A stretch of 52,649 nt of DNA from IMG/VR virus record IMGVR_UViG_3300025096_000028, positions 1-52,649 of that record; one strand, 5' to 3'. How positions within the stretch are numbered: the stretch's first letter is position 1; each line of letters starts with the position of its first letter. This document shows, piece after piece, positions 5,505 through 47,636 of the stretch. The stretch is from a virus. Lineage: Duplodnaviria > Caudoviricetes. Under the pieces are notes generated by a model. It ran no database searches. It was not told the DNA's origin and was given only the letters and a program-made list of their open reading frames with translations. The translations under genes were made by a program, and so were the position numbers.

Positions 5505-5518
5505 CTAATAGAAAACAG

Positions 5519-5547
5519 TTGATAGTAATGAATAATATATATAAATT
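5519..5547 (+). promoter_or_regulatory. Sigma70-like promoter of the ejection-protein operon
   Basis: TTGATA-N17-TAAATT; same hexamers and flanks (GTTGATA...TAAATTAGA) as at 43901. Confidence 0.7.
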
Positions 5548-5577
5548 AGAGATAAAATCTTACAAGGAAAATTATTT

Positions 5578-7343: not shown

Positions 7344-8924
7344 ATGGCATTTGGATACAAGCCAAATACATCTCAAATTACTACAGCTTTAAATGATATA
7401 TTAGAGTCTAGACAAAAAAGAGAAGCAGCAGAACAAGCTAGCGAAGAAAGAATTTTAGCATTACAAAGAGATGCATTTGAAAGCGATAGAGATTGGAATG
7501 AAAAATTAGCCGATAAAGTTAAAACAAATTTAGAAGGATTAATAAGAGGAGCTAAAGATGAAAGACACTACAATGTTCAATCTTTTAGAGATAGTTATTT
7601 GTCTCCTTTATATGAAATACACAAAGATAGCGCAGAAGGATTTGGCGGATTAAGAAACCAATTTATAAAGAGCGGCTTAAGCCCTTTTATGTCTAATAAA
7701 ATGGCTGGATTAATTTGGTCTGCTGGAGTTAATAATACAGACCATGTCCCTGTTATTGAATTTGCAGATTTGATAAATAATGAAATACAGAATGAAGATG
7801 ATACATTTGAAGATGCTTTAGCAGCTTTTGGTATTCTACCTCCTGGAAAAGAACTTAGTGAACCAAGAAATCAAAAAGTTTATAGTGAAGCTGAAAATCT
7901 TATAGGCAATCATCAGGAAGTAATAGAGTTAAATCAAAAATTAGAGGATTTTTATCGAATAAGCCCTTCTAAGTTAATTAAAAATGTATCTTCTTCAGAA
8001 TTTGATATGGGAGAAGGAGTATTTAGTGGAAAACCTGGTGGTGATGATGATGATGATAATCCACTAGAATATACATTTCCATTTTCTACAAATGATGTAG
8101 AATCTGTTTTTAATATGGATGCTAATAGACAAACACAATATTTCAATAGTATAGGTTGGGGAAGTGCTGTATATAGCATGGATATGACTGAAGACGCTAT
8201 GAATCAAAATCTTGCATTAAATGCAGAAGCGCAATTAGGGTTAGATAAAATGGATGACTACTATTTAGATATAGCTAGTAAACAAGGATATGACTTAACT
8301 AACGAAGATATGGGTAATTTAAATAGACTTATAGAATTAAGAAGAAGTCTACTTCAGAACGAAGCTACTGTATTTACTAATAATATTAATCAATTCACTA
8401 GCCAAGGCGGTGGAGGTGCTGGAGGTGGTTCTGGTTCTGGTTCTGGAGGTGGTTCTGGTTCTGGTTCTGGAGGTGCTGGAGGCGGTGGAGGTGCTGGAGA
8501 TAGTGACCAAACTCAGTATGGATATATGGGAGAATTTGGACATGATGCTAAACAACTTCCTGCTACATTAGCAATGAAGGCATATAATACTGTTATGAAT
8601 ATGGGAGCTACAATGGAAGACAATAAATATGCTCAGGAGATGAAACTTGTAGTTAGAGATAAACACCTTTTGGGGAAAGCTTCAATAAAACTTAGAGAAC
8701 TAGAAGAAACTCCTGTAGAAAAACGAAGAACGAATTATGACAATCAACTTAATAGCCTTCAACAAAACGTTGAAAGACTTGAAACAAAATTTAACGATAG
8801 AATTTTAGATTTTAACGATAGATATAATACAAATTTTGGAGCATATTCTATACCTTTCTTAGAAAAGATGATACATATGACAAAAGATAATTCTCCAAAC
8901 GATATTCTAAAAAGAAAGAGATAA
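7344..8924 (+). CDS. Ejection (internal virion) protein with Gly/Ser linker
   Basis: Helical acidic protein, no Cys, 31-aa Gly/Ser/Ala tract. Confidence 0.55.
   Translation: MAFGYKPNTSQITTALNDILESRQKREAAEQASEERILALQRDAFESDRDWNEKLADKVKTNLEGLIRGAKDERHYNVQSFRDSYLSPLYEIHKDSAEGFGGLRNQFIKSGLSPFMSNKMAGLIWSAGVNNTDHVPVIEFADLINNEIQNEDDTFEDALAAFGILPPGKELSEPRNQKVYSEAENLIGNHQEVIELNQKLEDFYRISPSKLIKNVSSSEFDMGEGVFSGKPGGDDDDDNPLEYTFPFSTNDVESVFNMDANRQTQYFNSIGWGSAVYSMDMTEDAMNQNLALNAEAQLGLDKMDDYYLDIASKQGYDLTNEDMGNLNRLIELRRSLLQNEATVFTNNINQFTSQGGGGAGGGSGSGSGGGSGSGSGGAGGGGGAGDSDQTQYGYMGEFGHDAKQLPATLAMKAYNTVMNMGATMEDNKYAQEMKLVVRDKHLLGKASIKLRELEETPVEKRRTNYDNQLNSLQQNVERLETKFNDRILDFNDRYNTNFGAYSIPFLEKMIHMTKDNSPNDILKRKR
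8406..8498 (+). repeat. Low-complexity Gly/Ser-coding repeat
   Basis: Includes an exact 24-nt tandem duplication GGAGGTGGTTCTGGTTCTGGTTCT at 8421-8444 and 8445-8468. Confidence 0.9.
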
Positions 8925-8927
8925 TTT

Positions 8928-11900
8928 ATGCCAGATGATAATATATTTGAACAGTCTTTACTTCAAAGGCTTGCAAGAGGAGAAGAGGTAGAAGATAACA
9001 CTTTTGATATAAAAAATCGTGTATCTAATTACGAACAAAATATATCAACTCAAACTCCTAAACCTAATCAAGATTTATCTAAATTACTACAAGAAAGAGC
9101 CGAAAGAGCAGGAAGACCTCCTTCTAAAAAACAATCTGATGTATATAGCTATGAAGATAGAGTAGATTTTTCTGGAAACCCTACTGATAGAGTTCATTTT
9201 TGGGAAAGTGAAAGGTCCTTAATGGAACAACTTGGTAGAGGTTCAGCAATGTTTGGAGAAGGGATTGTTGACCAAGCGCTTTTAGGTGCTCCAAGTACAT
9301 TTACTGATTGGGAAGATATTGCTCCTGACCCAGAAACTGGCTTAGAAAGATTTATGCAAATGAGTGGAGAAACTATTGGTTTTATTCTTCCATTTATGGC
9401 TACTAAAGGAAGGACTAGCGCAGCAGCTCAAAGCAGTAAAGCTGGAGCAAAAACTGGTCTCAAACAACTTGAAACATCTGTTGATGCTGCTATATCTAAA
9501 AAGAATTTAAAATTTGATTCCAAATTATACAAAACTGCAGATGACGCTAAAGATTTTATTGTAAAACAAGCAACTGCACTTACAGTTGGAAATAAACTGT
9601 CAAATTTTGCTAGAATGAGCGCAGTTCAAAAAACTAAATTTTCTCGTGATATGCAACACAATACTGGTAAAATGATTAAAGAATTTGTAGCAAAACAAGG
9701 AATTAGAGGAATTGATGATGAGGCGGTAAAACTTATTAGTAAAGATATGGGAACATGGTGGACATCTATTGATGGTAGAGTAGTATCAAGTCTAGAAGAT
9801 TTAATGACTAACAATCTTATGAAACGTAATTTATTTGCAAATTGGGATACAACTGGAAAATATGCAGCTTATATGGGCGGAATGATGGAAGAAGCAGCTT
9901 TATTTGCTATGGTTGAAGGTATGGCTTTAGGAGTGCAAGATTTATCTTCAGCTGATTGGTGGGGATATAAGCCTAAAGCGTTAGATGGAGAGAATAAAGT
10001 TCCTATAGGAATTATGGATTATTTAAAAACTGGAATACATGCATCTGTATTTGGTGCAGCTTTAGGATGGACACGTGCTGCGATTCCAGGTGGGGTTAGA
10101 GGTGGAGTATTTAAACAAATGAAAGGTTCTAACTTAGATAATATAAATTCAATGTTAAATGGTCCAGGTACTAATTTTGCAAAAGGTATTAAAACAACTA
10201 CTAAAGAAGGTAGACAATCTTTAAATCATATGCATAGAGCTTATGGACAAATAGATGACCTTATTTTAAAAGATAAAGAGTTGGGAACAGTAGGTATTCC
10301 TACGGTACTAGGAAAAAAAGCACGAAATCATCCATCGTTTAAAAAATTACCAGAGAAGTTTAGAAATAAAGAACTTTTCCTACCAGAAGATTTAGCTAAA
10401 CTAGCATCTGATGAAACTCTTACAAGAGCTCAAAAAATTGCTATTGCTGAAATTCAACAAGATGGCTTACAACATTTAGCTAAAAGAGTTAGAACTGATA
10501 TGAGAGTCGCATTTGCAAAAACAATGAAAGCTGATTGGTTTGGAGGAACTGTAAATGGAGAAAGAATAATGGGAAGTTTTCCTAGAGTATTAGCTGGTGG
10601 TACATTATTTGGCGTTCAGGGTTGGATAGACCCGAATGTCCCTATGGATGATAAAATATTTCATACTATGTTAGGTATGGCATTCTTAAAGGGTGGTAGA
10701 GACTTGCAATTTAAAGGAAGAGATGTTTCTTTAGATAGAATGACAAATAGATGGAATTCTAAATCTTCAGGATTATTTGGTAGAACTAGTGCTGATTTTC
10801 CTAAAAATTTAGAAATATTAAGCGAAATAAACTCAACAACTGGAGTAGATGTAGGTAATAGAGGTGTTTGGGGACCTATTTTCAATAGAATAGAACAAGA
10901 TAGGATTGATTTTTGGGACCAAGTACAACCAGTTGGAGGTGTCAATGAAAAAACAAGCACTTTTCATAAAAAGGTTTTAGAGAAAGATAAAAAGGGTAAC
11001 TATAAATATTTAGTAAAAGAAAAATTTGATACAGATGGAAATGATATAACTTTTAAAGGTGATACAGATTTAAAGCTAAAAGGACCTAGAGACCAATTTA
11101 TTCCTAATTATATATATTGGTCAAGAAATGTACAAAGTGCTTTCAATAAAGAAGGAAATAAAATTATACCAGAAGGCTATAGAGTAAAAGATATTACTAT
11201 GCAAGAATTAAAATCTTCAGAAGCTCGTGGTATGGAGAAGATGTTCAAAGAACTAGATGTATTTAATTCATTTGATATGTGGAGATATTTGACTAAATCA
11301 GGAGGTTTGCATATTAAAAAGGGTGTTGATATGATGGTAAGTGACATGATAAAGACAGACTTTCTTATTAGACCAGATGGAAAAAAATATAGTCTTGTAG
11401 GACAAACAAACGATGGATTTACAAAATTATCCCCTATTGACTCTAGTCGTTTAGATTTATCAAAAATGAGTGATGCACACAAAGAAAATCAATTACATAT
11501 TGAACAAGCTCTTGATACTTGGAATAGAGTTGTTGACTTAAATCATAGAAATAGTGATATGCCTTTTTCCCAAATAGGACAACCTATAAAAATTGATAAT
11601 AGAACAAGCGGCTTGATAGAATGGGCTAATCATATACAATCATCTCAAGAAAGATTTAGTGATAGATTAAAACCGATGGGATTTAAAAAAATAATTAAAA
11701 TTGATAATTTTCTTGAAGCTCAATATGACATATTTAATGATTTCAATAGTGTAGATAAAAGCATTAGCGTATTAAAAAAATTGTATGAAACAAAACAAGA
11801 CAAATTAGAACCTTCTGAAAAAAGAATATTAGATAAAATTAATGATGCAATAAAAACAGAAAAAGATGGAAAGATTACAGATTTAGTTTTAGTGTCTGAT

Positions 11901-14900
11901 AGTCCAACCTCAAATATAAATAAAAAACAAAGTCTTTTTATTAACTCTATAAGAGATGCAGCTAGAAATATTCCAGGACAAAAATCAGTAAGACCTAATG
12001 TTACTGAAAGACCGACTCTGGAACAAATGAAAAGACTTGAAGAAGGTAAAGATATTAAAAAAATATCTAATAAAGATATTAATGAAATAATGGAATTTTT
12101 TCATAGAGAAGGAGTAACTATTTGGTCTAATGGATACAAAAAAATGAAACAACTTGAAGATTTCACAGAAACTGTTGTAAAATTTCAAGCTCATGAATCT
12201 CTAAAAAAATCAGAATTTCCAGTACTTGACGCTGAAGGAAAAGTTATAGGAAAAACACCGTTTAGTTTGAAACATTTTAATGTAATTCAAATCTTAAAAG
12301 AACAGGGTATTGTTGATAGTTTTCTAGGAGTCACTAAAGATGTTCAATTATTTGGAGAAAGTTTGACCTCTTTTAACAAAAGACAAAAAAATCTTAATTT
12401 TGATAAAATGTTTGAAGAAATAGATAAAAAAGGTCTAGCAGACTACAAAAAATCTTTAGAAGATGCTAATCTTTCTCAAGTAGAAATAAATAATAGATTA
12501 AAAATCTATGAATCATTTAAAGATATGGCTGAAAATCCAAAAACAATAGATATGAAAATGCAAGAAATTAATGCTCTTATAGATAATCTTACTAATAAAT
12601 ATAGACCAGAATTAGGTTCTTATACTGGTGTATTAAGTCCCCATACAAGACAAACTCAAATTTTAATTCCTAGCAATCAAGCTCAACTTTTATACATTAA
12701 ATTAAGCGAAGTTTTAACTCAAGAAAAATATGGAAAAGAACAAATTTTTCATAAAAAATTATTTGATATGGATTCAAACCGACCAAATGACCAAAGACAT
12801 AGTGCTATAATGAAAATGATTACCGCTGACTTAATGACTAGCAGAGAATCAAGTGTAAAACAATTTGATGCCGCTGTTTTAAGTAAATTGTACGATGTAA
12901 CAAAAAATGAATTTGCATGGAATAAAGATAGATATGTGGACAAACTTGAGCCAGGAGACCTTATGATGGCTCTTAAATCTGAATTAAAAAAATTTAATTC
13001 TATTATGGAGAATGGTTGGGATTACTCTAAAAGACAAATTAAAGAACGATACGAAAATTTTGAACAATTAGATATGACTAAAGATTCAGAATTAATGTCA
13101 CAATCTTGGACAGTAGACCATTTATTAGAATACAATCTTGGAGAATGGACCTCATTAGAAGAGGGTGTAAGTAAAAGAAAATACTTACATAATAATATTT
13201 TTATAAAAGAATTTTATGGAGACGTTGCTAAGTTTAATCTAAAATTCAAAGAACAATTAGAATTACATAATAGCGAATTTAGAGATAATCCAAATCTTAC
13301 ACAATCTGTGCTAATGAAAGTTTCAACAGATTTAGTAAACTCAAAAGATAGACCAATCATTGAAATAGACTTAAAAGATAAAGCCAGAACAACAAGAGAA
13401 GATATTTCAGTTACTCAAAGTATTAGAGATGGAATAATTGAAAAACTAATTAGCGACCCAGCTCAACAAGCATTTGGTATAAAAAATAAAATTATTTATG
13501 TTAAAAGTACATTAAAAAATAGAGAAGGAAAAGAAGCAAGTTTATTTGATAAAGATATGTATATAGATGCAGCTGATGCAGCATATAACGGAGAATTACC
13601 TTATATGCCTAAAAATCCTAAAGATATGGTATCAGAATATCAGGGTAGGGATGTAGAAAGACCATCTGATTTAAAAATTGAGACAACAGGACAAGGGGAA
13701 GTTTTACCTAGATTAATGTTTTATCTTCGTCATCCTAATAGTATGAAAGGAAAAATTGACTCATTTAAATTAAATGATAGTTTAGTTGATACTGTTTTGA
13801 ATACTTATCTTAAGACTTTATATAAAGATGGTCAAAAAGAAATGGCAGATAAATTTATTGCTGATAATAACGTAAAAAATGAACAACGTATAGACCCAGT
13901 AACAGAAGAAATTGTTACTATTAAAGATTCTTGGACTTTTGGAGGTAAAAATCAATCTCCATTATTTTCTGATTTTAATGTTTTCCCTATAGAACCAACA
14001 TTAGGTAGACAATTATTTAGAGACATGCTTTATACTTTAGAGTTAAGAGAAATAAAAAAAGAAAAAGGATTAGATAATTTTTATAAAGAACTATCGCAAG
14101 ACCCAGAGCTTCATGCTCTAGAACAGACAAGAATCAAGATAGTTGATAATTCTAATTCTGTTCGCCTTGATAAACCTTTATTAAAGAAACATTATGAATT
14201 TATGTCAGAATCTAAAGTAGAGTTTGAAGGCAAAAAAGATATTCTTGAAATGAATCAAAGAGCTACAAATAGTCATCCAGAAGGTAGGACAATTAAAAAA
14301 GTTGTAATTAGAGATGAAAATTTAAATGGTAAAGTTGCCGAAATTGTGAGTGTACAAAATAGGCTTATAAAGGGACTAGAAAAGTTAATAAACAATCCTG
14401 AAACAAACATTTATTCTAAAAAAATCTATGAAAGAGAACTTGAAAATATAAAAGATTTATATAAAAATCAAGGCTATGGTGAGGTGTCTGCTGGAGATTC
14501 TTATATGATGGTTACTAAAAAGTTTCATGATTTTATGGATTACACTAGATTCGGAAGAGAGCCAGGCACTTCTAAATCTGGTGGTATTAAAGCGCATTAT
14601 GCAGATATAAAAAATCCTAAACTATTTGGTTTATACAAAACATTTCTTCAGAAACACAAAATGATGGAAAAAATAGTAGAAGGAACAGATGTAGAAGTAG
14701 TTGTTTTTAACACTGCATCTAAAAAAATGGGTCAAAATTATCACAAAGAAATGGCAGAGAAGTTTATTTCTTTAGATAACTTTACTTCAGAAAATTTTAA
14801 TTTAAATAGTTTAAAAGAGAAAATAAAAGATAAAAATACTCATATACCTGTAGATATAGAAGGATTTAGTATTATGTACAGAAAAGGCAATAAAACTGAT

Positions 14901-17900
14901 GTTCCAGCTCCAGCTAATCAATCTTTACATTTTGACATGTTAACTTCTTCAAAAGAATTAGGAGATTCCAATGTAATGAATCAATTCATTAGAGATATTT
15001 ATGGAAAAAAATTGGAGACAGCAAATGAAAATGCTAGAAGAATTGGTAAAACTCAATACATGAATGAACAAATAGCAAAATTAAAACAATTAGTAAATCG
15101 TAAAAGTATTCATAATGCTGAAAGTATGGAAGGGTTTGTTTTAGGAGAAGGTGATATGAAAGTCGCCAAATTACTTACTATGTTTGATGCTCCTCCTCAA
15201 TTAGGTGGAGTTACTATGACTGAGTTGTTATTAAAAGATATATTTAGTGAATCTTTAAATCCTAAAGTTTCAGGTTCACATGCTGTATTTGCTCCAGATA
15301 TAAGATTTAAAAAAGATGGAACTTTGGAAAATCCTTTAAAAATTCCTATTGTTGATAAAGATACAGGAGAACATTTTCAATTAGGAGAAATTATAGTTCC
15401 TCATGATTTCAGAACTAGACAAACTAATATAGATAAAATTACAATAGAAATTCCTAAAAAAGGAGAAAATAATATAATTGTAAATGGTTCTGAAGCATCA
15501 AAACATGGTATAACATTAAGAGAAAATGGTACTATGTATGATTACGCAAAAAACGGACAACAAACTCCATTATATCAAGTTAAAGTAGATATGTATGAAC
15601 ATCAAGGAAGAAGAAGTAAAGATGGAGACCCAGCTGATATATGGGTTGTTAAAGATTTAAAAGAAGCAAATGAACAATTACAAGCAATGAAAGAAGGTCC
15701 AGGAGGAGCTGTAAACTTTGCTAATAAGATTGTAAAAAATAAGAATATAGAAAGTGGAGAATATATATTAAGGGACAACAAAGCTGATAGAGGTGACCAT
15801 AAATATATTTATATTAAAGGTAGTAAAGCTCATAAAGAACTATTAAAAGAAGAAATTATCGTTCCTGACACAAATGGAAATTTAACAGTTAGACAACAAG
15901 CTCTTCAAAAAGACCCTAAAAAAGTAAAAGGAAAACAATATATTAAAGGAGCTGAAATACCATATAATGTGGTTTTATTCGCAAGAAGAGACCCTTACTA
16001 CAAAGAAGGTAGTGTAGTTCCTGTTGCTTTAAAAGATTTTAATGAAAGAGATAATGGAAATCAATTTATATTAAATGATAAAGATGCTTTCCATCACGTT
16101 GAAACAGATATGGATGGAGATACTGCATCTATTTCTCACAGCTATTCTAAAGAAGTTTCTAAAGAATTTATGAAGATTGCTTCTCAAGCGATGGCTACAC
16201 AAGTTAGACCAACAAATGGAAATGCTGCTTACGAAACTCTTACAAGTGGTCCTTACAATCCAATGAAAGAAATAAGTCAATTAGAATATTCTGAAGTACA
16301 AGCAAGAGCAGCTAGATTGAGAGGAAGTGTTATGCAAGTTTCTCATATTGCTCATTGGTTTTTAAATAACAATAGTCGTAATGACCTTAGGATATTGAAT
16401 GAAAAGGGAGATGCAGTTTTTTATGAAGGACCTATGTTCCCTATATCTGGTACTGATAAAGGAATTCAATTATTTTTAGGAATAAGACAAGAAGTTAGAG
16501 ATAAACAGGGAGCAAGTAGGTTTAGACAAGAATTAGCTAAAGATATTCAAACTTTAGTAGATACAGCTAAAGGTGAATGGGATACAGAATATTTTAGTAG
16601 TGCTAGAGATATAACTAACAGATTATTATTTCATAAAGACTATGGATTATTTGTTCCTATGAAAAGGCAGAAGAGAAAAGATGGAAAATATAAAGACGAA
16701 CTTGTATGGATTGAACAGCCTAATATTGATTTCAGAAGAGACCATGTTACCGCATTTCAAGCAATAGAAAAATTATGGATGATTAAAAAAGATTCTTTAA
16801 AATTTAGAAACAATGAATTGAATGCAGATGGTAGTATGAGAAAGCCTAAATTTAAAGATAGAAAAGCAACAATGGATAGATATGGTGAAGAATTGTCTTC
16901 TTTTGAATGGAGTGAAGAAGCTAATGCCCTAAGAAATGAAATGGGATGGAGTCAAAGTCAGCAAATACTTCGTGGATTTGGTGATAATGCTAATTTTATG
17001 AGAAATAAAAATGGAACAAGCAATATGGGAATGATTGATAGAATTGACTATTCTATGCATAGCGGGATTAACCATGGATGGAAATGGAAAAATACTGATA
17101 CAGATATTACAAGTCTTGTAGAAAGTACAATAGATAAATTTACAGCTACTAGAGAAAGAGGCGAAAATAATAAGTATTTAAGTGATGCCGAGCATTATAA
17201 TAAAATAATAGAGGCATTCAACAAAGAAACTAAAGAAGTTGGTGCAAAATTTTATATGCTAGAAACTCTTCAAAATCAAGTAGCTGAATTAAGAAATGAA
17301 AGAAAAGGTCTTACAGGCAATGACGCTTCTAGTGCTGCTAAACTTACAGCTCAGATAGAGGCTAAAAAAGTTCTTATAGAGAATATGAAGAAAATTGAAC
17401 TAAAAGAATATTTAGATGTAGATTCATATTTTACAGACAAAGCAAAATTAAAACCTAAAGTTAAACAATTTCTAGATTCTGTTTTTAATGATTATAAAAT
17501 AAGAGAAGAAAGAATATTAAAAGAAGAAAAAGGAGATAATTTCTCTGTTTTAGATGCAGATGCTAAGAGCAAAATAGAAGCAAGAGCTAAAGCAAGTATG
17601 GAAAAAAATGGTATTAATATTGAACAAGTATCTAGGGGAGATGTATTAGAAGCTATGGCTGCTGAAAGAGCATTTGGTAATTTAGCTGAATCTACTCCTG
17701 GACTTTTGAAAGTGAATGCAGAAACTCATAAAGAATTAATTAATATCATAGATAATCTTAAAAAAGATTATAGTGAAGCTATGTTAAAAGAATATAAGCC
17801 AAAAGAATCATCAGGATTTATAAATGATAATTATATTGTAGATATTTATAGAGAACAATTATTAGGTATATTACGTGCTGATAAATATCAAAATCCAGCT

Positions 17901-18689
17901 TTACAAGAATTGGTTTTTAGAAGATTAATGTCTCCAGAAATTCAAGCAAATAAAATTGGAAGTTATAGAGGTAATTTGTACTTTATGCCTAAATATACAA
18001 ACTTTCACAAATTTGTAAAATTGGGAATGCAAACATCTATGGAATTTCATCAGGGAATACCTTCAAGATTAGAGCCTCTTTGGAAACCATTTTTTAACAA
18101 TTATAAAAGACAAGTTTTAGCAATGCAAAATGGAATTGCTGGAGAAGGAACTTTAAAAGATGGTAAAATGACTCCTGAAAATTGGAGAGTAGAACATTTA
18201 ACTATGGGTACTAGATATAATAAATTAAGATTATTAGAAGAATTAATTCCAGAAGCTGATAATATTTTTGGTAAAAGAATTACAGAACTGGATAACTATA
18301 CAATAGATAGTATAATATTTAATGGAGGATTTATTCCAGAAATTATTAACAATAATAGAATTACTAACTTACCATGGAAAGCTGTTACAGACATCAGCGC
18401 AGAATATGGAAGAGATTCAGCAATATATGGTAAAAAAGAATCAGATATAGCTATAGACCAAAATAATGCTAGAGCATTTTATATAGATAAAGATAGAAAT
18501 TCTTTTATTAGAGATTTGCAAACTAATAATACATTAAAATCAAATGAGACATCTCAAAATCTAACACAAGAACGTTCTGTGGATGTAGAACGAAGTTTAG
18601 AAGAATATGAAAGAAAAAGTCAAGAAGAAACAGAACAACCAAAAGAAGGTATATTATGTTCTGTAACAGAAGTAATAAAGGGAGATTAA
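8928..18689 (+). CDS. Giant virion protein containing a single-chain two-barrel (DPBB) DNA-dependent RNA polymerase
   Basis: Beta-like motifs GDSYMMV (D1857), K1888, K1904, DVEVVVFNTASK; beta-prime-like VSGSHAVFAP, GEIIVP, R2354-D-P, catalytic DMDGD (aa 2394-2398, nt 16107-16121), bridge-helix-like LVDTAK; hydrophobic N-terminal helices; one Cys. Confidence 0.8.
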   Translation: MPDDNIFEQSLLQRLARGEEVEDNTFDIKNRVSNYEQNISTQTPKPNQDLSKLLQERAERAGRPPSKKQSDVYSYEDRVDFSGNPTDRVHFWESERSLMEQLGRGSAMFGEGIVDQALLGAPSTFTDWEDIAPDPETGLERFMQMSGETIGFILPFMATKGRTSAAAQSSKAGAKTGLKQLETSVDAAISKKNLKFDSKLYKTADDAKDFIVKQATALTVGNKLSNFARMSAVQKTKFSRDMQHNTGKMIKEFVAKQGIRGIDDEAVKLISKDMGTWWTSIDGRVVSSLEDLMTNNLMKRNLFANWDTTGKYAAYMGGMMEEAALFAMVEGMALGVQDLSSADWWGYKPKALDGENKVPIGIMDYLKTGIHASVFGAALGWTRAAIPGGVRGGVFKQMKGSNLDNINSMLNGPGTNFAKGIKTTTKEGRQSLNHMHRAYGQIDDLILKDKELGTVGIPTVLGKKARNHPSFKKLPEKFRNKELFLPEDLAKLASDETLTRAQKIAIAEIQQDGLQHLAKRVRTDMRVAFAKTMKADWFGGTVNGERIMGSFPRVLAGGTLFGVQGWIDPNVPMDDKIFHTMLGMAFLKGGRDLQFKGRDVSLDRMTNRWNSKSSGLFGRTSADFPKNLEILSEINSTTGVDVGNRGVWGPIFNRIEQDRIDFWDQVQPVGGVNEKTSTFHKKVLEKDKKGNYKYLVKEKFDTDGNDITFKGDTDLKLKGPRDQFIPNYIYWSRNVQSAFNKEGNKIIPEGYRVKDITMQELKSSEARGMEKMFKELDVFNSFDMWRYLTKSGGLHIKKGVDMMVSDMIKTDFLIRPDGKKYSLVGQTNDGFTKLSPIDSSRLDLSKMSDAHKENQLHIEQALDTWNRVVDLNHRNSDMPFSQIGQPIKIDNRTSGLIEWANHIQSSQERFSDRLKPMGFKKIIKIDNFLEAQYDIFNDFNSVDKSISVLKKLYETKQDKLEPSEKRILDKINDAIKTEKDGKITDLVLVSDSPTSNINKKQSLFINSIRDAARNIPGQKSVRPNVTERPTLEQMKRLEEGKDIKKISNKDINEIMEFFHREGVTIWSNGYKKMKQLEDFTETVVKFQAHESLKKSEFPVLDAEGKVIGKTPFSLKHFNVIQILKEQGIVDSFLGVTKDVQLFGESLTSFNKRQKNLNFDKMFEEIDKKGLADYKKSLEDANLSQVEINNRLKIYESFKDMAENPKTIDMKMQEINALIDNLTNKYRPELGSYTGVLSPHTRQTQILIPSNQAQLLYIKLSEVLTQEKYGKEQIFHKKLFDMDSNRPNDQRHSAIMKMITADLMTSRESSVKQFDAAVLSKLYDVTKNEFAWNKDRYVDKLEPGDLMMALKSELKKFNSIMENGWDYSKRQIKERYENFEQLDMTKDSELMSQSWTVDHLLEYNLGEWTSLEEGVSKRKYLHNNIFIKEFYGDVAKFNLKFKEQLELHNSEFRDNPNLTQSVLMKVSTDLVNSKDRPIIEIDLKDKARTTREDISVTQSIRDGIIEKLISDPAQQAFGIKNKIIYVKSTLKNREGKEASLFDKDMYIDAADAAYNGELPYMPKNPKDMVSEYQGRDVERPSDLKIETTGQGEVLPRLMFYLRHPNSMKGKIDSFKLNDSLVDTVLNTYLKTLYKDGQKEMADKFIADNNVKNEQRIDPVTEEIVTIKDSWTFGGKNQSPLFSDFNVFPIEPTLGRQLFRDMLYTLELREIKKEKGLDNFYKELSQDPELHALEQTRIKIVDNSNSVRLDKPLLKKHYEFMSESKVEFEGKKDILEMNQRATNSHPEGRTIKKVVIRDENLNGKVAEIVSVQNRLIKGLEKLINNPETNIYSKKIYERELENIKDLYKNQGYGEVSAGDSYMMVTKKFHDFMDYTRFGREPGTSKSGGIKAHYADIKNPKLFGLYKTFLQKHKMMEKIVEGTDVEVVVFNTASKKMGQNYHKEMAEKFISLDNFTSENFNLNSLKEKIKDKNTHIPVDIEGFSIMYRKGNKTDVPAPANQSLHFDMLTSSKELGDSNVMNQFIRDIYGKKLETANENARRIGKTQYMNEQIAKLKQLVNRKSIHNAESMEGFVLGEGDMKVAKLLTMFDAPPQLGGVTMTELLLKDIFSESLNPKVSGSHAVFAPDIRFKKDGTLENPLKIPIVDKDTGEHFQLGEIIVPHDFRTRQTNIDKITIEIPKKGENNIIVNGSEASKHGITLRENGTMYDYAKNGQQTPLYQVKVDMYEHQGRRSKDGDPADIWVVKDLKEANEQLQAMKEGPGGAVNFANKIVKNKNIESGEYILRDNKADRGDHKYIYIKGSKAHKELLKEEIIVPDTNGNLTVRQQALQKDPKKVKGKQYIKGAEIPYNVVLFARRDPYYKEGSVVPVALKDFNERDNGNQFILNDKDAFHHVETDMDGDTASISHSYSKEVSKEFMKIASQAMATQVRPTNGNAAYETLTSGPYNPMKEISQLEYSEVQARAARLRGSVMQVSHIAHWFLNNNSRNDLRILNEKGDAVFYEGPMFPISGTDKGIQLFLGIRQEVRDKQGASRFRQELAKDIQTLVDTAKGEWDTEYFSSARDITNRLLFHKDYGLFVPMKRQKRKDGKYKDELVWIEQPNIDFRRDHVTAFQAIEKLWMIKKDSLKFRNNELNADGSMRKPKFKDRKATMDRYGEELSSFEWSEEANALRNEMGWSQSQQILRGFGDNANFMRNKNGTSNMGMIDRIDYSMHSGINHGWKWKNTDTDITSLVESTIDKFTATRERGENNKYLSDAEHYNKIIEAFNKETKEVGAKFYMLETLQNQVAELRNERKGLTGNDASSAAKLTAQIEAKKVLIENMKKIELKEYLDVDSYFTDKAKLKPKVKQFLDSVFNDYKIREERILKEEKGDNFSVLDADAKSKIEARAKASMEKNGINIEQVSRGDVLEAMAAERAFGNLAESTPGLLKVNAETHKELINIIDNLKKDYSEAMLKEYKPKESSGFINDNYIVDIYREQLLGILRADKYQNPALQELVFRRLMSPEIQANKIGSYRGNLYFMPKYTNFHKFVKLGMQTSMEFHQGIPSRLEPLWKPFFNNYKRQVLAMQNGIAGEGTLKDGKMTPENWRVEHLTMGTRYNKLRLLEELIPEADNIFGKRITELDNYTIDSIIFNGGFIPEIINNNRITNLPWKAVTDISAEYGRDSAIYGKKESDIAIDQNNARAFYIDKDRNSFIRDLQTNNTLKSNETSQNLTQERSVDVERSLEEYERKSQEETEQPKEGILCSVTEVIKGD

Positions 18690-18690
18690 T

Positions 18691-21576
18691 ATGGCTTCAA
18701 TAAGAATATGTGCTAAATCAAATAAACAGAAAAAAGAAATAAGAGCTGCACTTCAATTGCATGCTTCTAAACTTGGTCAATGGATGGGAGAAAAAGGTTT
18801 TGATAGTAGAGATATGAGGCTTACTTGGGACCAAATAAAAATGAAAACTGTTGGAGCAAAAGCTGGTATGGATGGAGATTTTAGGATAGAACATTTGCAA
18901 AAAATTCCTAAAGTAATTGCTACAGCAAAATATAGATTAACAAGAAATAGAAATGATATAGTTAATGCTATTCTTCAGCCTCAAGACAGGGCTAAAGATT
19001 GGGGTGTAGTTGACAGGTTTAATGAAAATATATTTCGTTCTGTTAATGAATATGCAGGTAATAATCAAACAAACGCTGCTTCATATCAAAACCTTTGGAA
19101 ATTTATAGCAGAAGGTTCAGCTATACTAGGAGCAAAATCAAGAAATAATCCTTTAGGTAAAATTTATAAAAATCCAAATCAACTTGCTAAAGTTGTTGAT
19201 AGGCTATTTTCAGAATATGATTTAGCTCAAGCAAATGGAGATGTAAACCTTGCAAGAGAATTATATGAAGGAAATCCTAGAAAAGGAATAGTTGGAATAA
19301 ATAAGATAATGAGACAAGGGCAAGGTAAAATATTTAAAGAAGTGTATGATTTAATTTTGCAACCAAAAATAAATAGCGGTGGAAAATTAGGATATAAAGA
19401 ATTTGCAGAACGAAGGGGATATACTGAACAAGCTAAAAATGCAGCAGAGATATGGCATAATGAATTACATCCAAGAGGAAGAATACAAATAAAAAAAGGT
19501 ATAGAAAATTTTAGAAATTCAATAAAGAATAAAAGACATATATTTGGGCACTTAACAGATTCAAATGGTCGTTTATTATATGATAGAGTTGTTAAAAATC
19601 TTGATGGTGTAATTAAAGAATACAATGATAGAAAGAATCAAAAGGAAGGATTTTATCCTATATTTTCAATGGAAGTTTTACCTTCTATAACTGAAGCTTC
19701 TAGATTAATGCTTCATGCAAACAAAAAGAATCCAGAAAAAGATATTCGACAGGGAGCAAGTGTATTAGAAAAAATAGAAAAAGTATTTAAAGAAAATAAA
19801 AATTTGCATACAAATTTAAGAGATAACAAAATTAATAATGATAAAGCTAGTGCTAACATATTTTATGTATTAGATGCATATAGTAAAAATGCTTCTAGAT
19901 TTAATATGGTAACTTATAATACAGCTCAATATTTAAAAGTTATGGAAAGTTTATATAAGTTTGAAGGAACTGAGATGGAAACTAAGATGAAACAAATGGA
20001 AGAATTTATTGACCATCAGTATTCAATTATTAGTGGTCAAAAAGCTGGAGAGAATAAAGCATTAAATGATATTACAAGAGCTATAACATCATATCAATTT
20101 GCTTCTAAGCTAGGTTTAAACCTTAGAAGTGCGGCTAGAAATGCAACTCAAAGTTTATTAAATTATGTTCATTTTGGAGCTATTAATTTATATAAATCAT
20201 ATAAAGAAATGCTAGACCCTAAAATGAAAACAAGAATAAATCAAGGGCTACAAGATAATGGTATTTTATTTGCAGACCTTAAAGAGGGACCTCTGACTGG
20301 TTTTATTAATAAATCTGAATATAGTCTTGAAAAAGGAATTTTTGAAACTAAAAAAGGAGTAAATGCTGATTACTTACATAGATTTGCAGATTCTATTGAC
20401 AAAATAGCAGATACAACAGGTTGGGCTATGCAATTTGTTGAGAATAAATTAAATCGTAAGTTAACATATAAAATTGGATATAGTTTAGCTTGGAAAAGCA
20501 TGAAGAGTGATAATACTTATCACCAACAATTATTTATGAATCAAATTAATAAACAATTAAAAAGAGAAGGTATTTCTAAAGGTGAAATAAAAAAATTAGA
20601 AGCCAATAATTATAGAGATTTGCAAAAAGAAGGAACTCATCAAATATTTAAGGAAGGAGATTCTACTCACATGCAATTTTTGTATGAAAATTATTTACGT
20701 AGAAAAGCAAATAATGCTGGTGTTTGGGCTACTAGAGAACTTCATTATGATTATTCAGCTACAGGAAAATCTCAATTTATGACTACTAAACCTGGTGCTG
20801 TAATGTTTCAATTCCAACATTTTAGTATGAGTTATTTTAATTATCAAAGAAAGATAGCAAGAAATTATGCAGAAGATTTATCTTCTGGTTTGTGGAATAC
20901 CCCAGAAGGTGGTAGAGCTTTTAGATTAGCAATGCTATATGGAGTAATAACTCCTTTATTTGAAGTTGCAATTCCTGGAGGAGCAAGATTTAGCAACCTT
21001 GTACAAAACGATACAGCAGAAAGAATTATTCAAATTAGAGATTATATATTAGAAGGAAATGAAGGTATGACCACAGATTCTAAAGGTAATTTAGTTGAAT
21101 ATGATAAGAGAGAAGGTAGAGGTTCTTTTTATGGAAAAGGTCCTTTTATTGGTTTATTGGGTGGACCTATGATTTCAGACTTAGTTACTTTAAATAATTT
21201 AGCGGATTTATATGATTTAGATGAAGATGGATGGGCAGCTATGCTTAGTGGTTATCAAGATTATTCAGATAAGTCAACAAATGAAAAATGGGATATTCTC
21301 TGGAAGACAATAAATAGAGGTAGTCAAAGAATGACAAATTTTTGGACTGGAAAAGGAACTTTTGGAAGCCAGGTTCAAAGTAGTTTTGGGTTGTTTCCAA
21401 ACCAGGATATTTTGGACAAAAGACAACAGGTTAGAAGTTGGTTTGAAAAATTGGGGATTATGGAACCTGATAAAAAGAAACCTAAAACAGTTAAACCTCG
21501 AAGTATATCTCCTGATATAGATAAAAGCTTAACTACTTTAGGTAGAACTGGTGGTAGAGCTGCGGGAAGTTATTAA
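18691..21576 (+). CDS. Large ejection/cargo protein
   Basis: LGLNLRSAARNATQ and HYDYS...MFQFQHF motifs resemble C-terminal regions of large podovirus ejection proteins; one Cys at residue 7. Confidence 0.6.
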   Translation: MASIRICAKSNKQKKEIRAALQLHASKLGQWMGEKGFDSRDMRLTWDQIKMKTVGAKAGMDGDFRIEHLQKIPKVIATAKYRLTRNRNDIVNAILQPQDRAKDWGVVDRFNENIFRSVNEYAGNNQTNAASYQNLWKFIAEGSAILGAKSRNNPLGKIYKNPNQLAKVVDRLFSEYDLAQANGDVNLARELYEGNPRKGIVGINKIMRQGQGKIFKEVYDLILQPKINSGGKLGYKEFAERRGYTEQAKNAAEIWHNELHPRGRIQIKKGIENFRNSIKNKRHIFGHLTDSNGRLLYDRVVKNLDGVIKEYNDRKNQKEGFYPIFSMEVLPSITEASRLMLHANKKNPEKDIRQGASVLEKIEKVFKENKNLHTNLRDNKINNDKASANIFYVLDAYSKNASRFNMVTYNTAQYLKVMESLYKFEGTEMETKMKQMEEFIDHQYSIISGQKAGENKALNDITRAITSYQFASKLGLNLRSAARNATQSLLNYVHFGAINLYKSYKEMLDPKMKTRINQGLQDNGILFADLKEGPLTGFINKSEYSLEKGIFETKKGVNADYLHRFADSIDKIADTTGWAMQFVENKLNRKLTYKIGYSLAWKSMKSDNTYHQQLFMNQINKQLKREGISKGEIKKLEANNYRDLQKEGTHQIFKEGDSTHMQFLYENYLRRKANNAGVWATRELHYDYSATGKSQFMTTKPGAVMFQFQHFSMSYFNYQRKIARNYAEDLSSGLWNTPEGGRAFRLAMLYGVITPLFEVAIPGGARFSNLVQNDTAERIIQIRDYILEGNEGMTTDSKGNLVEYDKREGRGSFYGKGPFIGLLGGPMISDLVTLNNLADLYDLDEDGWAAMLSGYQDYSDKSTNEKWDILWKTINRGSQRMTNFWTGKGTFGSQVQSSFGLFPNQDILDKRQQVRSWFEKLGIMEPDKKKPKTVKPRSISPDIDKSLTTLGRTGGRAAGSY

Positions 21577-21743
21577 TTTTTTTCTGAATTAGCTTTTTTG
21601 ATATAATATCTTTTAAGTTCCATTAGTTTACTAAATGCTTCTTTTAAGGCTTTTCTGTTTTTATCGTTTAGTTCAAAATTGTTTATAGTTTTTAACATTT
21701 CTTCGTTTTCTGTAATGGTTTTTAAAATAGAATTTAGATTCAT
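21573..21743 (-). CDS. Hypothetical protein, 56 aa (not in ORF track)
   Basis: MNLNSILKTITENEEML...; AGGAG SD, ATGA overlap with the RuvC-like gene; its stop overlaps the stop of the convergent + strand gene. Confidence 0.65.
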   Translation of the reverse strand: MNLNSILKTITENEEMLKTINNFELNDKNRKALKEAFSKLMELKRYYIKKANSEKN

Positions 21744-34928: not shown

Positions 34929-35123
34929 TCATAGTCTATTAGCGATTACATTGAACCACTGATAGTGTCTAGGATAATCTATCTCCATTGTCTTTAATAA
35001 TTCAGACGTTGAAATATGATAGCAGTAACCTGTGTCACGTACATACCATACATCTCTGCCTTCATAACTAAGACGAAGATAGCCTGTATCACTATTCAGA
35101 CTATCGGTTAAACGAATATACAT
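34929..35123 (-). CDS. Hypothetical early protein
   Basis: Start revised to ATG 35123 after a maximal SD AGAAAGGAGGTGA. Confidence 0.7.
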   Translation of the reverse strand: MYIRLTDSLNSDTGYLRLSYEGRDVWYVRDTGYCYHISTSELLKTMEIDYPRHYQWFNVIANRL

Positions 35124-35477
35124 TTCGCTCACCTCCTTTCTTATTAGTTGACTCTTAATCTCTTTTATTTAAGAAAGGATTATATTTATACTTAATAGAT
35201 AATATTGTTTTATATAACAATTAAACTATATACACGCAATAGTATTATAGACAATACTATCTATCAAGTACTGAAATTCCACTCTATTTCAAATTGCGTA
35301 ACTTCATTCCATATAATCATAAAATAACTGATTATATATTCTCTATCTTATGATATTTTAAGTTTAAACGCTAAAGCACATTTAATGAGTGGCTTAAACA
35401 TACTTTATTATTTAAACCCCTAGACATCTTTATTTAGAGTTGCTTTGTCTAGTTTCTACAACTACAACTTAACTAAT

Positions 35478-44846: not shown

Positions 44847-46394
44847 ATGGCAGATACAAGTTATCCAGCAGATACGCCGTTGGCAATTGCTACCTCTACA
44901 GGCTTAAGTGAAGGTTATGCTGCTTCTCAGGGAAGTTCCCTGAGTACAGGTGATTTACGTAGACGATATGACTTTTCTGAAAGATTTTCGGAGTTAGCTT
45001 TAAGCCAAACTCCATTCTTCAGACTTGTTTCAATGTTAGCGAAGAAACCTACAGATGACCCATCATTTAAGTTTACAGAGAAGAGACAATCTTGGTTAAA
45101 ACGTTATGCTTACGTAGTTGGTTACAGACATAGTTCTACAGATGTGCACAATAATGCAGAACTGAAAGAATCAGATAATTCAGCTTTATCACTTGCTGGT
45201 GAAGTTAAATTATACATGGCAACTGACTACTTTAGCGCAGGTAATATCCAAAATGTCCAAGGTCAATCAAATGGCGCAATTAAAGTAGGAGACGCAGGAA
45301 CCGCTCCTGAGTTCTTACAAGTTAATCAAGTACTAAAAGTACCTATGAGTTCAACAGCTGGCGGTGGTGCAGCAACTGACTATATGTTAGTTCGCATTAC
45401 TGCAGTAGCAGCTCAAGGTGCATCAAACCTTAGTGCAAATAGCGGAACAGGTTCAGCAACTGCTGAAACTAAGTTAATCACAGGTAAGATTCTTAGAGTT
45501 CCAGCAGCGACTCATGTAGAATCAGCTTCCTATGCAAGCGATGTAGCACAATGTGTTAGTTACAGTGCAGATATTGCAGAAACTCTTGAAGAAAGACGTT
45601 CTTACGTAGTAGGTAACTCTTTCGGAGAAGGTTCTTCATTATTAGGAAAAACCTGGAAAGATAATCCATACTCAACTGGTTATGGACAAACACAAATCTT
45701 CAGAACTGAGTTCGGAATGACTAATACAGCAAGAGCAACAGCTCTTAAGTATGAACCAAACGAATGGGCTCGTGTTTGGAAAGATAAGTTAATCGAACAC
45801 AAATGGGATATTGAACAAGCAGGGCTTTTCTCATCTCAAGTGACCGATTCAAGTGTTAACCATACCCAAGGTGCTGTGGATTATGTCTTGAATTATGGTA
45901 ATATCTTCTCATGGAGTTCATCTAAGAACATTGATGACTTCTTGCAAGATATGTCAAAATACCAAGACCCACGATACAACCAAGACAAAGCAACAGTATT
46001 CTTATGTAGTACTGAAGTCTTTACTTGGCTACACAAACTAGGTGGATTCTTTAAACAAAACATCGATATTGATGACCAGTTTAGAGCAGACCTAGCAATT
46101 ACTGGTCGTAAGAAAGTAATGGGATTAGATGTAACAACTATTTCAACAGTATACGGAGACATTAATGTTTCTAGATGTATTGCTTTGGATGGTTCACACG
46201 TGAAAATCCTTGCGCTTAACATGAATAATGTTAAATACAGACCATTAGTTGGTAATGGTGTGAATCGTGATACTTCAATCTATGTCGGAGTTCAGACTTT
46301 AGAAAACTCAGGTATTGACAAGAGAGTAGATATGATTCTAACTGAGGCTGGCTTCGAATTTATGATGCCAGAATCACACGCTATTTGGAAATAA
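44847..46394 (+). CDS. Major capsid protein
   Basis: Position; TPFF...FKFTE, TQIFRTEF.MTNTA, EHKWDIEQA and MILTEAGFE HK97-fold-like motifs; high-expression codon bias. Confidence 0.85.
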   Translation: MADTSYPADTPLAIATSTGLSEGYAASQGSSLSTGDLRRRYDFSERFSELALSQTPFFRLVSMLAKKPTDDPSFKFTEKRQSWLKRYAYVVGYRHSSTDVHNNAELKESDNSALSLAGEVKLYMATDYFSAGNIQNVQGQSNGAIKVGDAGTAPEFLQVNQVLKVPMSSTAGGGAATDYMLVRITAVAAQGASNLSANSGTGSATAETKLITGKILRVPAATHVESASYASDVAQCVSYSADIAETLEERRSYVVGNSFGEGSSLLGKTWKDNPYSTGYGQTQIFRTEFGMTNTARATALKYEPNEWARVWKDKLIEHKWDIEQAGLFSSQVTDSSVNHTQGAVDYVLNYGNIFSWSSSKNIDDFLQDMSKYQDPRYNQDKATVFLCSTEVFTWLHKLGGFFKQNIDIDDQFRADLAITGRKKVMGLDVTTISTVYGDINVSRCIALDGSHVKILALNMNNVKYRPLVGNGVNRDTSIYVGVQTLENSGIDKRVDMILTEAGFEFMMPESHAIWK

Positions 46395-46404
46395 TAGCTA
46401 AATT

Positions 46405-46462
46405 ACAGATGTTGGTCCTTGTAGGTTCTTTACCTCCTTTCTCCCTATGGGGACCTATCTGT
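46405..46462 (+). ncRNA. Hairpin with anti-Shine-Dalgarno loop
   Basis: 12-bp stem GGUCCUUGUAGG/CCUAUGGGGACC (3 G-U) plus ACAGAU/AUCUGU; 18-nt loop containing ACCUCCUUUCU. Confidence 0.7.
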
Positions 46463-46476
46463 TAAGAGGAAATGAT

Positions 46477-47358
46477 ATGAAATTATGGGAAAAAGTAAAT
46501 AATATAACTGGAAATGCTTCCAAAGCTAGATTTCTTGTAGAAAATCTAAATGCAGGTGCTAAGTTTATTGTATCTAGTTTACCTGAAAGATTTTTATGGA
46601 CTGTTGCTTCTGAAGTAGAAATAAATGGATTTGATAGTGCTGGAGCAAGTATTATTGGAAATGGTTCTGATTTGGCATATGATAAGATATTAGCAGTTTA
46701 TCGTAATGATGGCACTAAAAAAAGAGTATGTCAAGAAATACCTGAAATTGCTATACATATGACAGATGAACCTAGTAGTTTGTCGTTTCCAACAAAAATG
46801 TTTCCTAAATATTATAAATTAAGTGGTAAAATATATATTAAACCAGACCCTGATTATAATGCACACGTGGGGAGTGGCAATTCGTATCAACATGCATATA
46901 CGAATCCAATCGGAACTACTGTCACAGTAGATTCAGAAGAAGGAGATAAAGGAGTTATTGTTTATTCAGCTCCCCCAGTAATTGATGAAAATACCGATTC
47001 ATGGGTATTAACAGAATATGAAAATGTAGCATTATTTTATGCAGCATCATTAGATATGTTAAGATTGTCTAATTCATTAGATGCTGAAAAGATTTTAGAA
47101 GGAGGTATGGCTTCAGTTGATGCTACAAGCAAAACAAGTTTATCTGCTATTCACTGGTTAGAAGATGAAGACCCTGAAATGGCAGCAGCAGTTTTACAAG
47201 CTTCTCAAGGAAATTTAAGTCTTGCAAATCAACGATTACAAGCAGCAATGGCTTTTTATCAAAGAGCAATATCAGAATTGCAAGCAATATCAGGAGCTAT
47301 TGGAGCTCCACAAGAAAAACAACAAGCTCAAAGACAGCAAGAAGGAGCAGCAACATAA
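46477..47358 (+). CDS. Head-tail adaptor/connector-like protein
   Basis: Start revised to ATG 46477 (GAGGA SD); PKYYKLSGKIYIKPDP...ALFYAA pattern; follows the capsid gene. Confidence 0.6.
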   Translation: MKLWEKVNNITGNASKARFLVENLNAGAKFIVSSLPERFLWTVASEVEINGFDSAGASIIGNGSDLAYDKILAVYRNDGTKKRVCQEIPEIAIHMTDEPSSLSFPTKMFPKYYKLSGKIYIKPDPDYNAHVGSGNSYQHAYTNPIGTTVTVDSEEGDKGVIVYSAPPVIDENTDSWVLTEYENVALFYAASLDMLRLSNSLDAEKILEGGMASVDATSKTSLSAIHWLEDEDPEMAAAVLQASQGNLSLANQRLQAAMAFYQRAISELQAISGAIGAPQEKQQAQRQQEGAAT

Positions 47359-47636
47359 TGAAAATTTTAGAAATAATGGAAAGAGCAAATTCTAGAGACA
47401 CTAATTTGGTTATAGCATATATTAAAGATGCATTTCATCAAATACAATCTTCTAATGAAATTAATACAGAAGTAAATAAACAAAATATTGTAGCTGATAC
47501 AAGAGATTATGATTTACCAGCGGGATTAATTGCTATTAAGAGTGTAAGTGTTTTAGATACAGAAGATGATAATAAATATAAAGCAATTAGAAGATTGCAA
47601 AACGAACCATTAGTAACAGAGGACACAAATCCATGA
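47358..47636 (+). CDS. Adaptor-like protein, N-terminal half
   Basis: Two helices followed by NIVADTRDYDLPAGLIAIKSV. Confidence 0.55.
   Translation: MKILEIMERANSRDTNLVIAYIKDAFHQIQSSNEINTEVNKQNIVADTRDYDLPAGLIAIKSVSVLDTEDDNKYKAIRRLQNEPLVTEDTNP

Follow-up and report, generated by a model that had tools for sequence, protein, structure and literature searches.

A covarying hairpin behind a phage major capsid gene displays a copy of the 16S ribosomal RNA tail in its loop

Why should a phage transcript carry, directly behind the gene for its major capsid protein, a copy of the 3' tail of 16S ribosomal RNA (rRNA)? The question is raised by an IMG/VR virus record of 52,649 bp (IMGVR_UViG_3300025096_000028; hereafter the window, meaning the whole stretch of DNA that was analysed), in which a + strand hairpin at 46405-46462 lies between the capsid gene and the next gene and shows the last ten bases of 16S rRNA in its loop. 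An initial annotation of this DNA had read the hairpin as a decoy that sequesters Shine-Dalgarno (SD) sequences, either silencing early or host messenger RNAs (mRNAs) in trans or attenuating downstream genes in cis. Comparison with related phages shows that the element is real, present as a single copy, tied to the 3' end of the capsid gene and selected as + strand RNA, with a loop that is invariant and unpaired.

The hairpin and its conservation behind the capsid gene

Both the sequence and the minimum free energy (MFE) fold, at -23.6 kcal/mol, bear out the hairpin at the position first proposed for it. The outer stem (5' arm at 46405-46411, pairing with 46456-46462) and the 12-bp inner stem (5' arm GGTCCTTGTAGG at 46414-46425, pairing with 46444-46455) are separated by a 2-nt bulge at 46412-46413, and the two 3' arms together fill 46444-46462. 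The stems enclose an 18-nt loop of nearly pure pyrimidine, TTCTTTACCTCCTTTCTC (also given as UUCUUUACCUCCUUUCUC), at 46426-46443, and the copy of the 16S tail within it, CCTCCTTTCT at 46433-46442, comprises the anti-SD core and the terminal bases of the rRNA. The stem begins 10 nt, and the motif 38 nt, past the capsid stop codon.

Taken alone, the fold in the window is unremarkable, with a z-score of -1.9 and an equally good fold in 9 of 200 shuffles. The match between loop and SD within the window alone is likewise weak and only mildly unexpected: ACCTCCTTTCT occurs exactly twice, at 46432 and 35131, and matches to it with at most one mismatch number three against 1.04 +/- 0.84 expected, a count that 3 of 100 shuffles reach. 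The significance of the finding therefore derives from the comparative data and not from the window by itself. Other late-strand intergenic regions (1917-2060, 5505-5577, 21577-21720 and the capsid leader) showed no structure beyond that of shuffles.

A search with the capsid protein returned 440 relatives in IMG/VR, from which the best 80 loci, at 64-96% identity, were taken. Three of these break off short of the capsid stop codon and a fourth only 3 nt past it, leaving 76 usable loci, and CCTCCTTT lies no more than 120 nt past the capsid stop in all 76 as well as in the window. Together they hold 48 distinct versions of an 84-nt segment, 47 of which were aligned with MAFFT (one truncated version, L059, was left out). 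The loop core CCUCCUUU, or CCTCCTTT as DNA, is invariant in all 47, and the next two bases, CT (CU in the RNA), are kept in at least 90%, while mean column identity over the alignment is 57% against 100% in the loop core. Unconstrained MFE folding returns the same hairpin in 47 of 47 sequences, with the motif unpaired in a loop of 12-19 nt. The architecture is also shared: the outer helix (4-9 bp) and the inner helix (10-12 bp) are set apart by a bulge or internal loop, and the inner one is capped by the large loop with the motif. The stem sequences, on the other hand, are unrelated between clades, as in GGUCCUUGUAGG, AUUCCCCGUGGG, GCUUCCUUCCG, GGGGCUUAAGG and GGGUAGUGGG.

The initial annotation had proposed loop conservation and stem covariation behind the capsid genes of relatives as the check on its reading, and both are found. 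On the MAFFT alignment, built from sequence only, 82.8% of the cells of a 16-pair structure are paired, compared with 62.8% +/- 1.1 in shuffled alignments, none of 500 of which reach the observed value; slid controls on the same alignment give 42-54%, and 15 of the 16 pairs have changes on both sides. Independently, RNAalifold calls eight pairs with compensatory changes in all eight. A covariance model, R1, was also used to realign 55 matches from 56 sources into 54 distinct rows. In these 54 distinct sequences 86.5% of cells are paired against 62.4% in shuffles (again 0 of 500 reach the observed value), an alignment that is fitted to the model and hence biased towards it, as the MAFFT alignment is not. 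On the model-fitted alignment the outer helix covaries with 90.7% of its cells paired, and 11 of the 12 pairs of the inner helix change on both sides across relatives.

The fold is strand-specific. G-U pairs make up 153 of 923 predicted pairs (17%), and in 43 of the 47 sequences folding is more favourable for the + strand RNA than for its reverse complement, by 6.7 kcal/mol on average, which together argue that the fold was selected in the late-strand RNA and not as a cruciform or as minus-strand RNA. With filters off, the covariance model finds a single match in the window at 78.3 bits, the next best reaching 15.6 bits (E 0.21), and it finds one match in each of the five complete relatives examined (53-72 kb), always after the capsid gene. 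A DNA-level signal, such as an origin, a packaging or recombination site or a cruciform, could be suspected from this single copy per genome and from the combination of a polypurine/polypyrimidine tract with an inverted repeat. This reading, and with it chance conservation through shared descent, is nevertheless very hard to credit: the G-U pairs would be A-C mismatches on the other strand, the element sits inside the late operon and not at the terminal repeats (judged from the two records that have such repeats), and the flanks and stems have diverged far while the loop core has not. One copy per genome also disposes of a repeated phage promoter motif.

The element has a median distance of 12 nt from stop codon to stem (range 0-19), a stem of 20 pairs, a loop of 18 nt and 12 nt from stem to next ATG, medians that are approximate because the next start is mis-assigned for the window and two relatives (L001 and L051). 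Loops are 93% pyrimidine, with 64 purines in 940 nt. In 45 of the 54 distinct sequences a YUNR motif ends 0-2 nt 5' of CCUCC; in work by Franch and colleagues from 1999, YUNR U-turns reportedly speed antisense pairing. The base that precedes CCUCC may be A, U, C or G, and a search for covariation between this base and the capsid SD gave no pattern.

How far does the element reach beyond these loci? A second capsid search, started from a divergent member, added 18 loci and extended down to 52% capsid identity. Ten of the 18, including one at 52% (L169), have CCTCCTTTC in a hairpin loop, and one (L155) has CCTCCTTCT instead. In three others, at about 52% capsid identity, ordinary GC-rich hairpins with small loops occupy the same site (L166, which has a T-run, L170 and L171), and in the remaining four the next gene lies directly 3' of the capsid gene. 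The covariance model matched 12 of 20 loci at E <= 0.01. The position behind the capsid gene is a conserved hairpin site, whose loop has been elaborated in one clade. As a further observation, many clades (L007-L011, L047, L050, L069, L074, L142 and L144) have, between the outer and the inner helix, a symmetric internal loop in which (N)GA(U) stands opposite UGA(C), while the window clade has only the 2-nt bulge. These UGA/UGA internal loops could form tandem G-A pairs.

The gene behind the hairpin (46477-47358, + strand, 293 aa in the window) provides a further comparison. In most relatives its N-terminal ~200 aa are conserved by BLASTP and are followed by a variable C-terminal part, for a total of 288 to more than 970 aa; the N-terminal domain runs MKLWEKVNN...SSLPEKFLW, and the C-terminal part measures from ~90 to more than 770 aa (window gene, L007, L035, L049, L060, L069, L072 and L074). 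The window protein has no family match, and the long forms have weak Pfam matches of coiled-coil or repeat type. From its sequence, the protein looks like a fibre with an anchor domain. In four relatives (L026, L044, L053 and L073) an unrelated gene of 158-165 aa takes its place and the hairpin is kept, indicating that the element goes with the capsid gene rather than with its downstream neighbour.

The loop, the 16S tail and the ribosome-binding sites

The ten loop bases CCUCCUUUCU are identical to the mature 16S 3' end of several bacteria, a resemblance that had already been noticed in the window. In Table 1 of a survey of such tails, GAUCACCUCCUUUCU is the mature 16S 3' tail of Listeria monocytogenes and Streptococcus pyogenes, and the same tail, with or without the final A, is given for Neisseria meningitidis and Deinococcus deserti (PMC6288834). 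These are bacteria used for comparison, and their tails may not be that of the host. Nearly all genes in the window, early and late, are preceded by an SD of the GGAG, AGGAG or AAGG type, so that its host must make use of SDs. When the best duplexes between the loop and the region from -20 to -4 are compared over 368 genes of six genomes, the loop positions CCUCCUUU take part in 49-75% of genes, compared with at most 31% for the 5' flank and at most 39% for the 3' flank of the loop, and control positions inside genes are flat at 37-56%. The invariant loop columns are therefore the positions that SD sites use, a pattern that fits SD pairing and fits equally any faithful mimic of the 16S tail.

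Candidate partners can be named in the window. The best of them, the SD at 35131-35141 on the minus strand, belongs to an early 64-aa gene starting at 35123 and is the exact 11-nt complement of the loop, as had been claimed, a match that is specific to this genome. The 8-9-nt pairings previously proposed for the SDs before genes 28692, 23567, 33977 and 34745 were also recovered, their longest perfect Watson-Crick runs being 9, 8, 8 and 8 nt, respectively. On the late strand, the SD AGAAAGGAGGA at 6812-6822 (+), of the gene starting at 6827, complements 10 of 11 loop bases. Exact 10-nt targets (AGAAAGGAGG, on either strand) number zero or one per genome in the five complete relatives, and the best predicted target genes differ between genomes, with the capsid gene among the top six in two of them (G001 and G005).

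The capsid SD varies by clade (TAGGAGGG, AAGGAG, CTGGAG or AAAGGT) and the loop remains constant. In the window clade this SD (44826-44836) lies in a small palindrome, CCCTAGGAGGG, with the potential for a weak 4-bp hairpin.

Possible roles of the stem and the loop

The reading favoured here, to which we assign a probability of roughly 45%, has the stem set or protect the end of the capsid message and the loop pair with SD sites, in cis rather than in trans. The element would then be a conserved, cis-encoded RNA element of the late (+) transcript, built of an interrupted stem of ~20 bp and a pyrimidine loop of 16-19 nt displaying CCUCCUUUCU. Its stem may act as a processing or protective 3' hairpin, in the manner of T7-type RNase III sites, or as a leaky stop, and would keep the highly abundant message for the capsid apart from a low-copy, fibre-like gene downstream. 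Its loop may base-pair with SD sequences and so compete with the ribosome's own tail. The most probable partners would be ribosome-binding sites on the same long late/capsid mRNA; action in trans on other mRNAs would be less probable. Either way, initiation at the bound site would be lowered, possibly with formation of an RNase III substrate.

The role given to the stem derives from the plain hairpins that distant relatives carry at the same site and from the likeness to T7 RNase III sites. Those sites lie between late or early cistrons and have a stem of about two helical turns, often with an internal loop, to which the median of 20 pairs corresponds here. T-phi of T7, moreover, is a hairpin that directly follows the major capsid gene (gene 10), where expression must drop. 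The present element differs from these T7 hairpins, whose loops are small and bear no resemblance to the 16S tail, and from T-phi also in lacking a U-run. In T7, a 3'-proximal sequence near an RNase III site is said, in work by Saito and Richardson from 1981, to be able to pair with an upstream ribosome-binding site.

Parts of the window are found in marine metatranscriptome runs, and contigs from four runs of four studies that span the scaffold and capsid genes end at 46380, 46372, 46402 and 46387, with no loose ends. The stretch 46438-46578 is uncovered by these contigs, and further downstream there are only short, thinner ones; neither this gap nor the lower downstream figures measure absence or expression level, and only the shared ends are informative. 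They offer a weak hint that an abundant RNA ends at the hairpin.

Could the stem do all the work? It might simply protect the 3' end, offer an RNase III site or form a roadblock before a low-copy gene, the loop being conserved for a reason unconnected with SD pairing, for instance to give Rho or some other factor a landing patch, or to repel ribosomes and purine-rich partners. Such a function would suit the ordinary hairpins of L166, L170 and L171, the T7-like stem, the placement of the hairpin's end ~12 nt before the next start codon and, weakly, the contigs that stop just before it. It is unlikely all the same, for it leaves unexplained why eight invariant and two nearly invariant loop bases persist amid fully turned-over stems, why they are identical to the 16S tail, and why the invariant columns are those that SDs use; an 18-nt patch is also short for a Rho site.

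An intrinsic terminator can be set aside. The initial annotation had argued from the missing U-tract that the hairpin is not a plain terminator, and this holds for the family: TT follows the stem in the window, at least five U in 8 nt occur in only one of 54 distinct members and UUUU within 10 nt in two of 54, and the loops of 12-19 nt in 47 of 47 sequences exceed the short loop (3-8 nt) that such terminators require. A terminator scan of the window returned only a 5-bp sub-stem at 46440-46453. The 3' arm of the window hairpin contains ATCTGTT, which we take to be the sequence of the T7 class II pause signal; relatives do not conserve it, and the window has no recognisable phage RNA polymerase. 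Nor is the hairpin a promoter of the N4 type, for which its loop is far too large and its position wrong.

That an anti-SD sequence could act in cis at a distance is made credible by two published cases. In Staphylococcus aureus, the 3' untranslated region (UTR) of icaR pairs with the SD of its own mRNA and yields an RNase III substrate (PMC3868564). In Bacillus subtilis, anti-SD-like 8-mers and 12-mers can lie hundreds of nucleotides away, even in the 3' UTR, and still pair in cis with the ribosome-binding site, which lowers translation, promotes decay and blocks initiation (Gill et al. 2025, a preprint, PMC12697547); the latter work also cites a case involving the 5' and 3' UTRs of hbs (PMC5737220).

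Several points weigh against pairing of the loop with SD sites. Any copy of the 16S tail necessarily complements SDs, so that the profile of SD use cannot separate SD binding from mimicry of the tail for another partner. There is no dedicated target conserved across the five complete relatives, and the SD of the capsid gene itself changes between clades under a constant loop. The coding strands of the phages show no depletion of anti-SD-like 6-mers (238 observed against 223 +/- 17 in codon shuffles), giving no sign of selection against the long-range anti-SD effects reported for B. subtilis, where such stretches are harmful and depleted from genes (PMC12697547). In addition, lowering capsid translation seems counter-productive for a phage, and the shared contig ends could be explained by branching of the assembly graph where strains diverge past the conserved gene end.

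The decoy first proposed, in which the abundant late capsid transcript would silence early-gene or host mRNAs with strong SDs in trans, is improbable. The displayed anti-SD that it presupposes is indeed under strong selection; the silencing of early mRNAs as the mechanism is not sustained, given targets that relatives do not share. In its favour stand the 8-9-nt runs at four early genes and, at the SD of gene 35123, the exact complement, as does the display of the loop with a YUNR motif like that of antisense RNAs, and staphylococcal RNAIII and RsaE/RoxS likewise use C-rich loops on SD regions in trans. Early mRNAs are not singled out, however, since the SDs of late genes, the capsid gene included, are as good as those of early genes, and the genes that pair best are not one conserved gene. 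Furthermore, one loop per mRNA would face far more numerous ribosomes, and no separate promoter and terminator unit was found: the 10 nt between the capsid stop and the stem contain no strong promoter-like site, and a U-tract is also lacking, though an RNA processed out of the 3' UTR is still conceivable. A curated trans-acting small RNA (sRNA) family of the RsaE/RoxS or RNAIII type was rejected because no Rfam model matches at its gathering score anywhere in the window, the hits around the element having chance-level E-values of 1.3-2.8.

The other mechanism suggested at the outset, attenuation of the adjacent gene in cis, meets a geometric obstacle. The weak SD AAGAGGAAA of the next gene (46464-46472, +) starts 2 nt past a stem of ~19 bp, so that a pseudoknot between it and the loop looks sterically impossible as long as the stem is intact, and this SD varies in relatives and is absent in five clade representatives (L054, L060, L065, L066 and L070). 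A local SD-sequestering hairpin, as in an RNA thermometer or riboswitch platform, is excluded as well, since the anti-SD is unpaired in the loop and the hairpin does not include the neighbouring SD. An in-frame ATG at 46447, in the 3' arm, is not conserved (CCTACGGGG in relatives). On the minus strand, where the motif reads AAGGAGG, no ATG, GTG or TTG follows at 5-12 nt in the window or in sequences of the L049 type, and the + strand-specific fold likewise tells against a ribosome-binding site there.

The loop might instead present the tail to a protein. As a decoy or operator for a factor that recognises the 16S 3' tail (S1, bS21, a 16S 3'-end maturation nuclease or an Era-like protein), it would titrate that factor, guide cleavage of the late transcript or repress a neighbour in the manner of ribosomal-protein operators. 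The conserved block is indeed formed by the ten terminal bases of mature 16S rRNA, and conservation ends together with the mature rRNA; no mRNA target turned out to be conserved, and the loop is invariant though phage SDs vary, as expected if a third party fixes its sequence. Tandem GA internal loops are common protein-binding motifs, and many clades have internal loops of this type, with UGA opposite UGA. Even so, this account is improbable. Era binds the GAUCA of the 16S tail, and GAUCA is not conserved here, the base before CCUCC being any of the four; binding of S1 would need no 8-10 invariant bases; and a Pfam scan of 40 open reading frames (ORFs) of the window recognised no RNA-binding protein, ribosomal protein or RNase. 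An operator for the downstream gene in particular is hard to reconcile with a hairpin that persists where that gene has been exchanged.

A broader and unlikely possibility is that unrelated phage lineages have independently placed the 16S-tail mimic CCUCCUUUCU on their most abundant late message, where it would re-allocate late initiation, either by competing generally for SDs or by acting as a decoy to a 16S-tail-binding factor. If true, a virus-encoded mimic of the rRNA tail would constitute a class of translational control not described before.

Related elements, significance and the phage lineage

The element is known in kind, from the anti-SD motif of the icaR 3' UTR and from sRNAs with C-rich loops, while a covarying 16S-tip hairpin behind a capsid gene was not found in Rfam or in the literature searched. 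The hairpins of RNAIII, the RsaE/RoxS RNAs of Firmicutes and the CcsR/Cuckoo RNAs have C- or CU-rich loops that bind SD regions, and the present element resembles them in its unpaired, C-rich hairpin loop complementary to SDs. It differs from them in that they are separate sRNA genes with a promoter and a terminator, often with several loops, whereas here a single hairpin is embedded in an mRNA, has neither a recognisable promoter nor a U-tract and matches no Rfam model.

With icaR it shares a C/U-rich anti-SD motif past the stop codon of an SD-bearing mRNA, with a link to RNase III in the staphylococcal case (PMC3868564). The icaR motif, UCCCCUG, lies in a long 3' UTR and addresses a single SD, that of its own mRNA; the phage motif copies the 16S tail over a full 10 nt, stands in a covarying hairpin loop, between two genes of a phage late operon, and is conserved across a large phage lineage. 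The long-range elements of B. subtilis are similarly pyrimidine-rich and anti-SD-like, and include stretches in the 3' UTR (Gill et al. 2025, PMC12697547); they differ from the phage element, which is conserved and displayed.

Nothing comparable appears in the available part of a paper on phage 201phi2-1 (PMC11512511). A conserved hairpin of this type, mimicking the 16S tail behind a phage capsid gene, has no Rfam model and appears in none of the open-access papers and preprints searched, and a literature search for the ten-base string gave papers on 16S tails, with no phage element among the matches listed.

Few non-coding features of this widespread, uncultured lineage of marine phages are as strongly constrained as the element. 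Should its loop pair with ribosome-binding sites, it would represent a natural, positively selected use of the long-range anti-SD effect recently measured in bacteria, and a simple, portable part for tuning translation. Should the loop instead serve as a decoy to a 16S-tail-binding factor, it would point to a new phage-host interface at the ribosome. In either case the covariance model is ready for annotating these phages, and the ten loop bases are a precise mutational target.

The phage itself looks podovirus-like. The record has a GC content of 32% and an estimated completeness of ~63%, and its structural genes include a large terminase (39105-40679), a P22-type portal (41668-43920), the major capsid protein and an SU10-type adaptor (47358-47636). 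The capsid gene (44847-46394, +) encodes a 515-aa protein of the SU10 type (Pfam SU10_MCP, E 9.3e-17; PHROG 1328, major head protein). A minus-strand block of early and replication genes encodes a DnaB helicase, a Dam-type methylase, a Sak annealing protein and a PD-(D/E)XK nuclease. Neither tblastn nor blastn found a match to the capsid in 50,697 deposited phage records, and the lineage is therefore uncultured. A tRNA search of the window returned none. Genome contigs matching the capsid are limited to two binned into metagenome-assembled genomes (L183 and L184), one of a Dehalococcoidia bacterium and one of a Poseidoniales archaeon, the 47-kb Dehalococcoidia contig bearing the hairpin. As two such unrelated phyla are involved, the bins are most likely artefacts and were rejected as a host signal.

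Three further features of the window deserve mention. On the late strand, 3' of a 526-aa ORF, lies an ORF of 3253 aa (8928-18689, +), a giant protein with no PHROG match at E <= 0.001; relative G004 encodes one of 2901 aa. It is followed by a 961-aa protein (18691-21576, +) that weakly matches the actin-like segregation protein Alp7A in its C-terminal domain, at E 7e-5, just over the Pfam cut-off. Finally, GGAGG recurs at 8412, 8421, 8445, 8469, 8478 and 8487, at spacings of 9 or 24 nt, in the 3' part of the ORF at 7344-8924, a series (8412-8492, +) that suggests a short in-frame tandem repeat.

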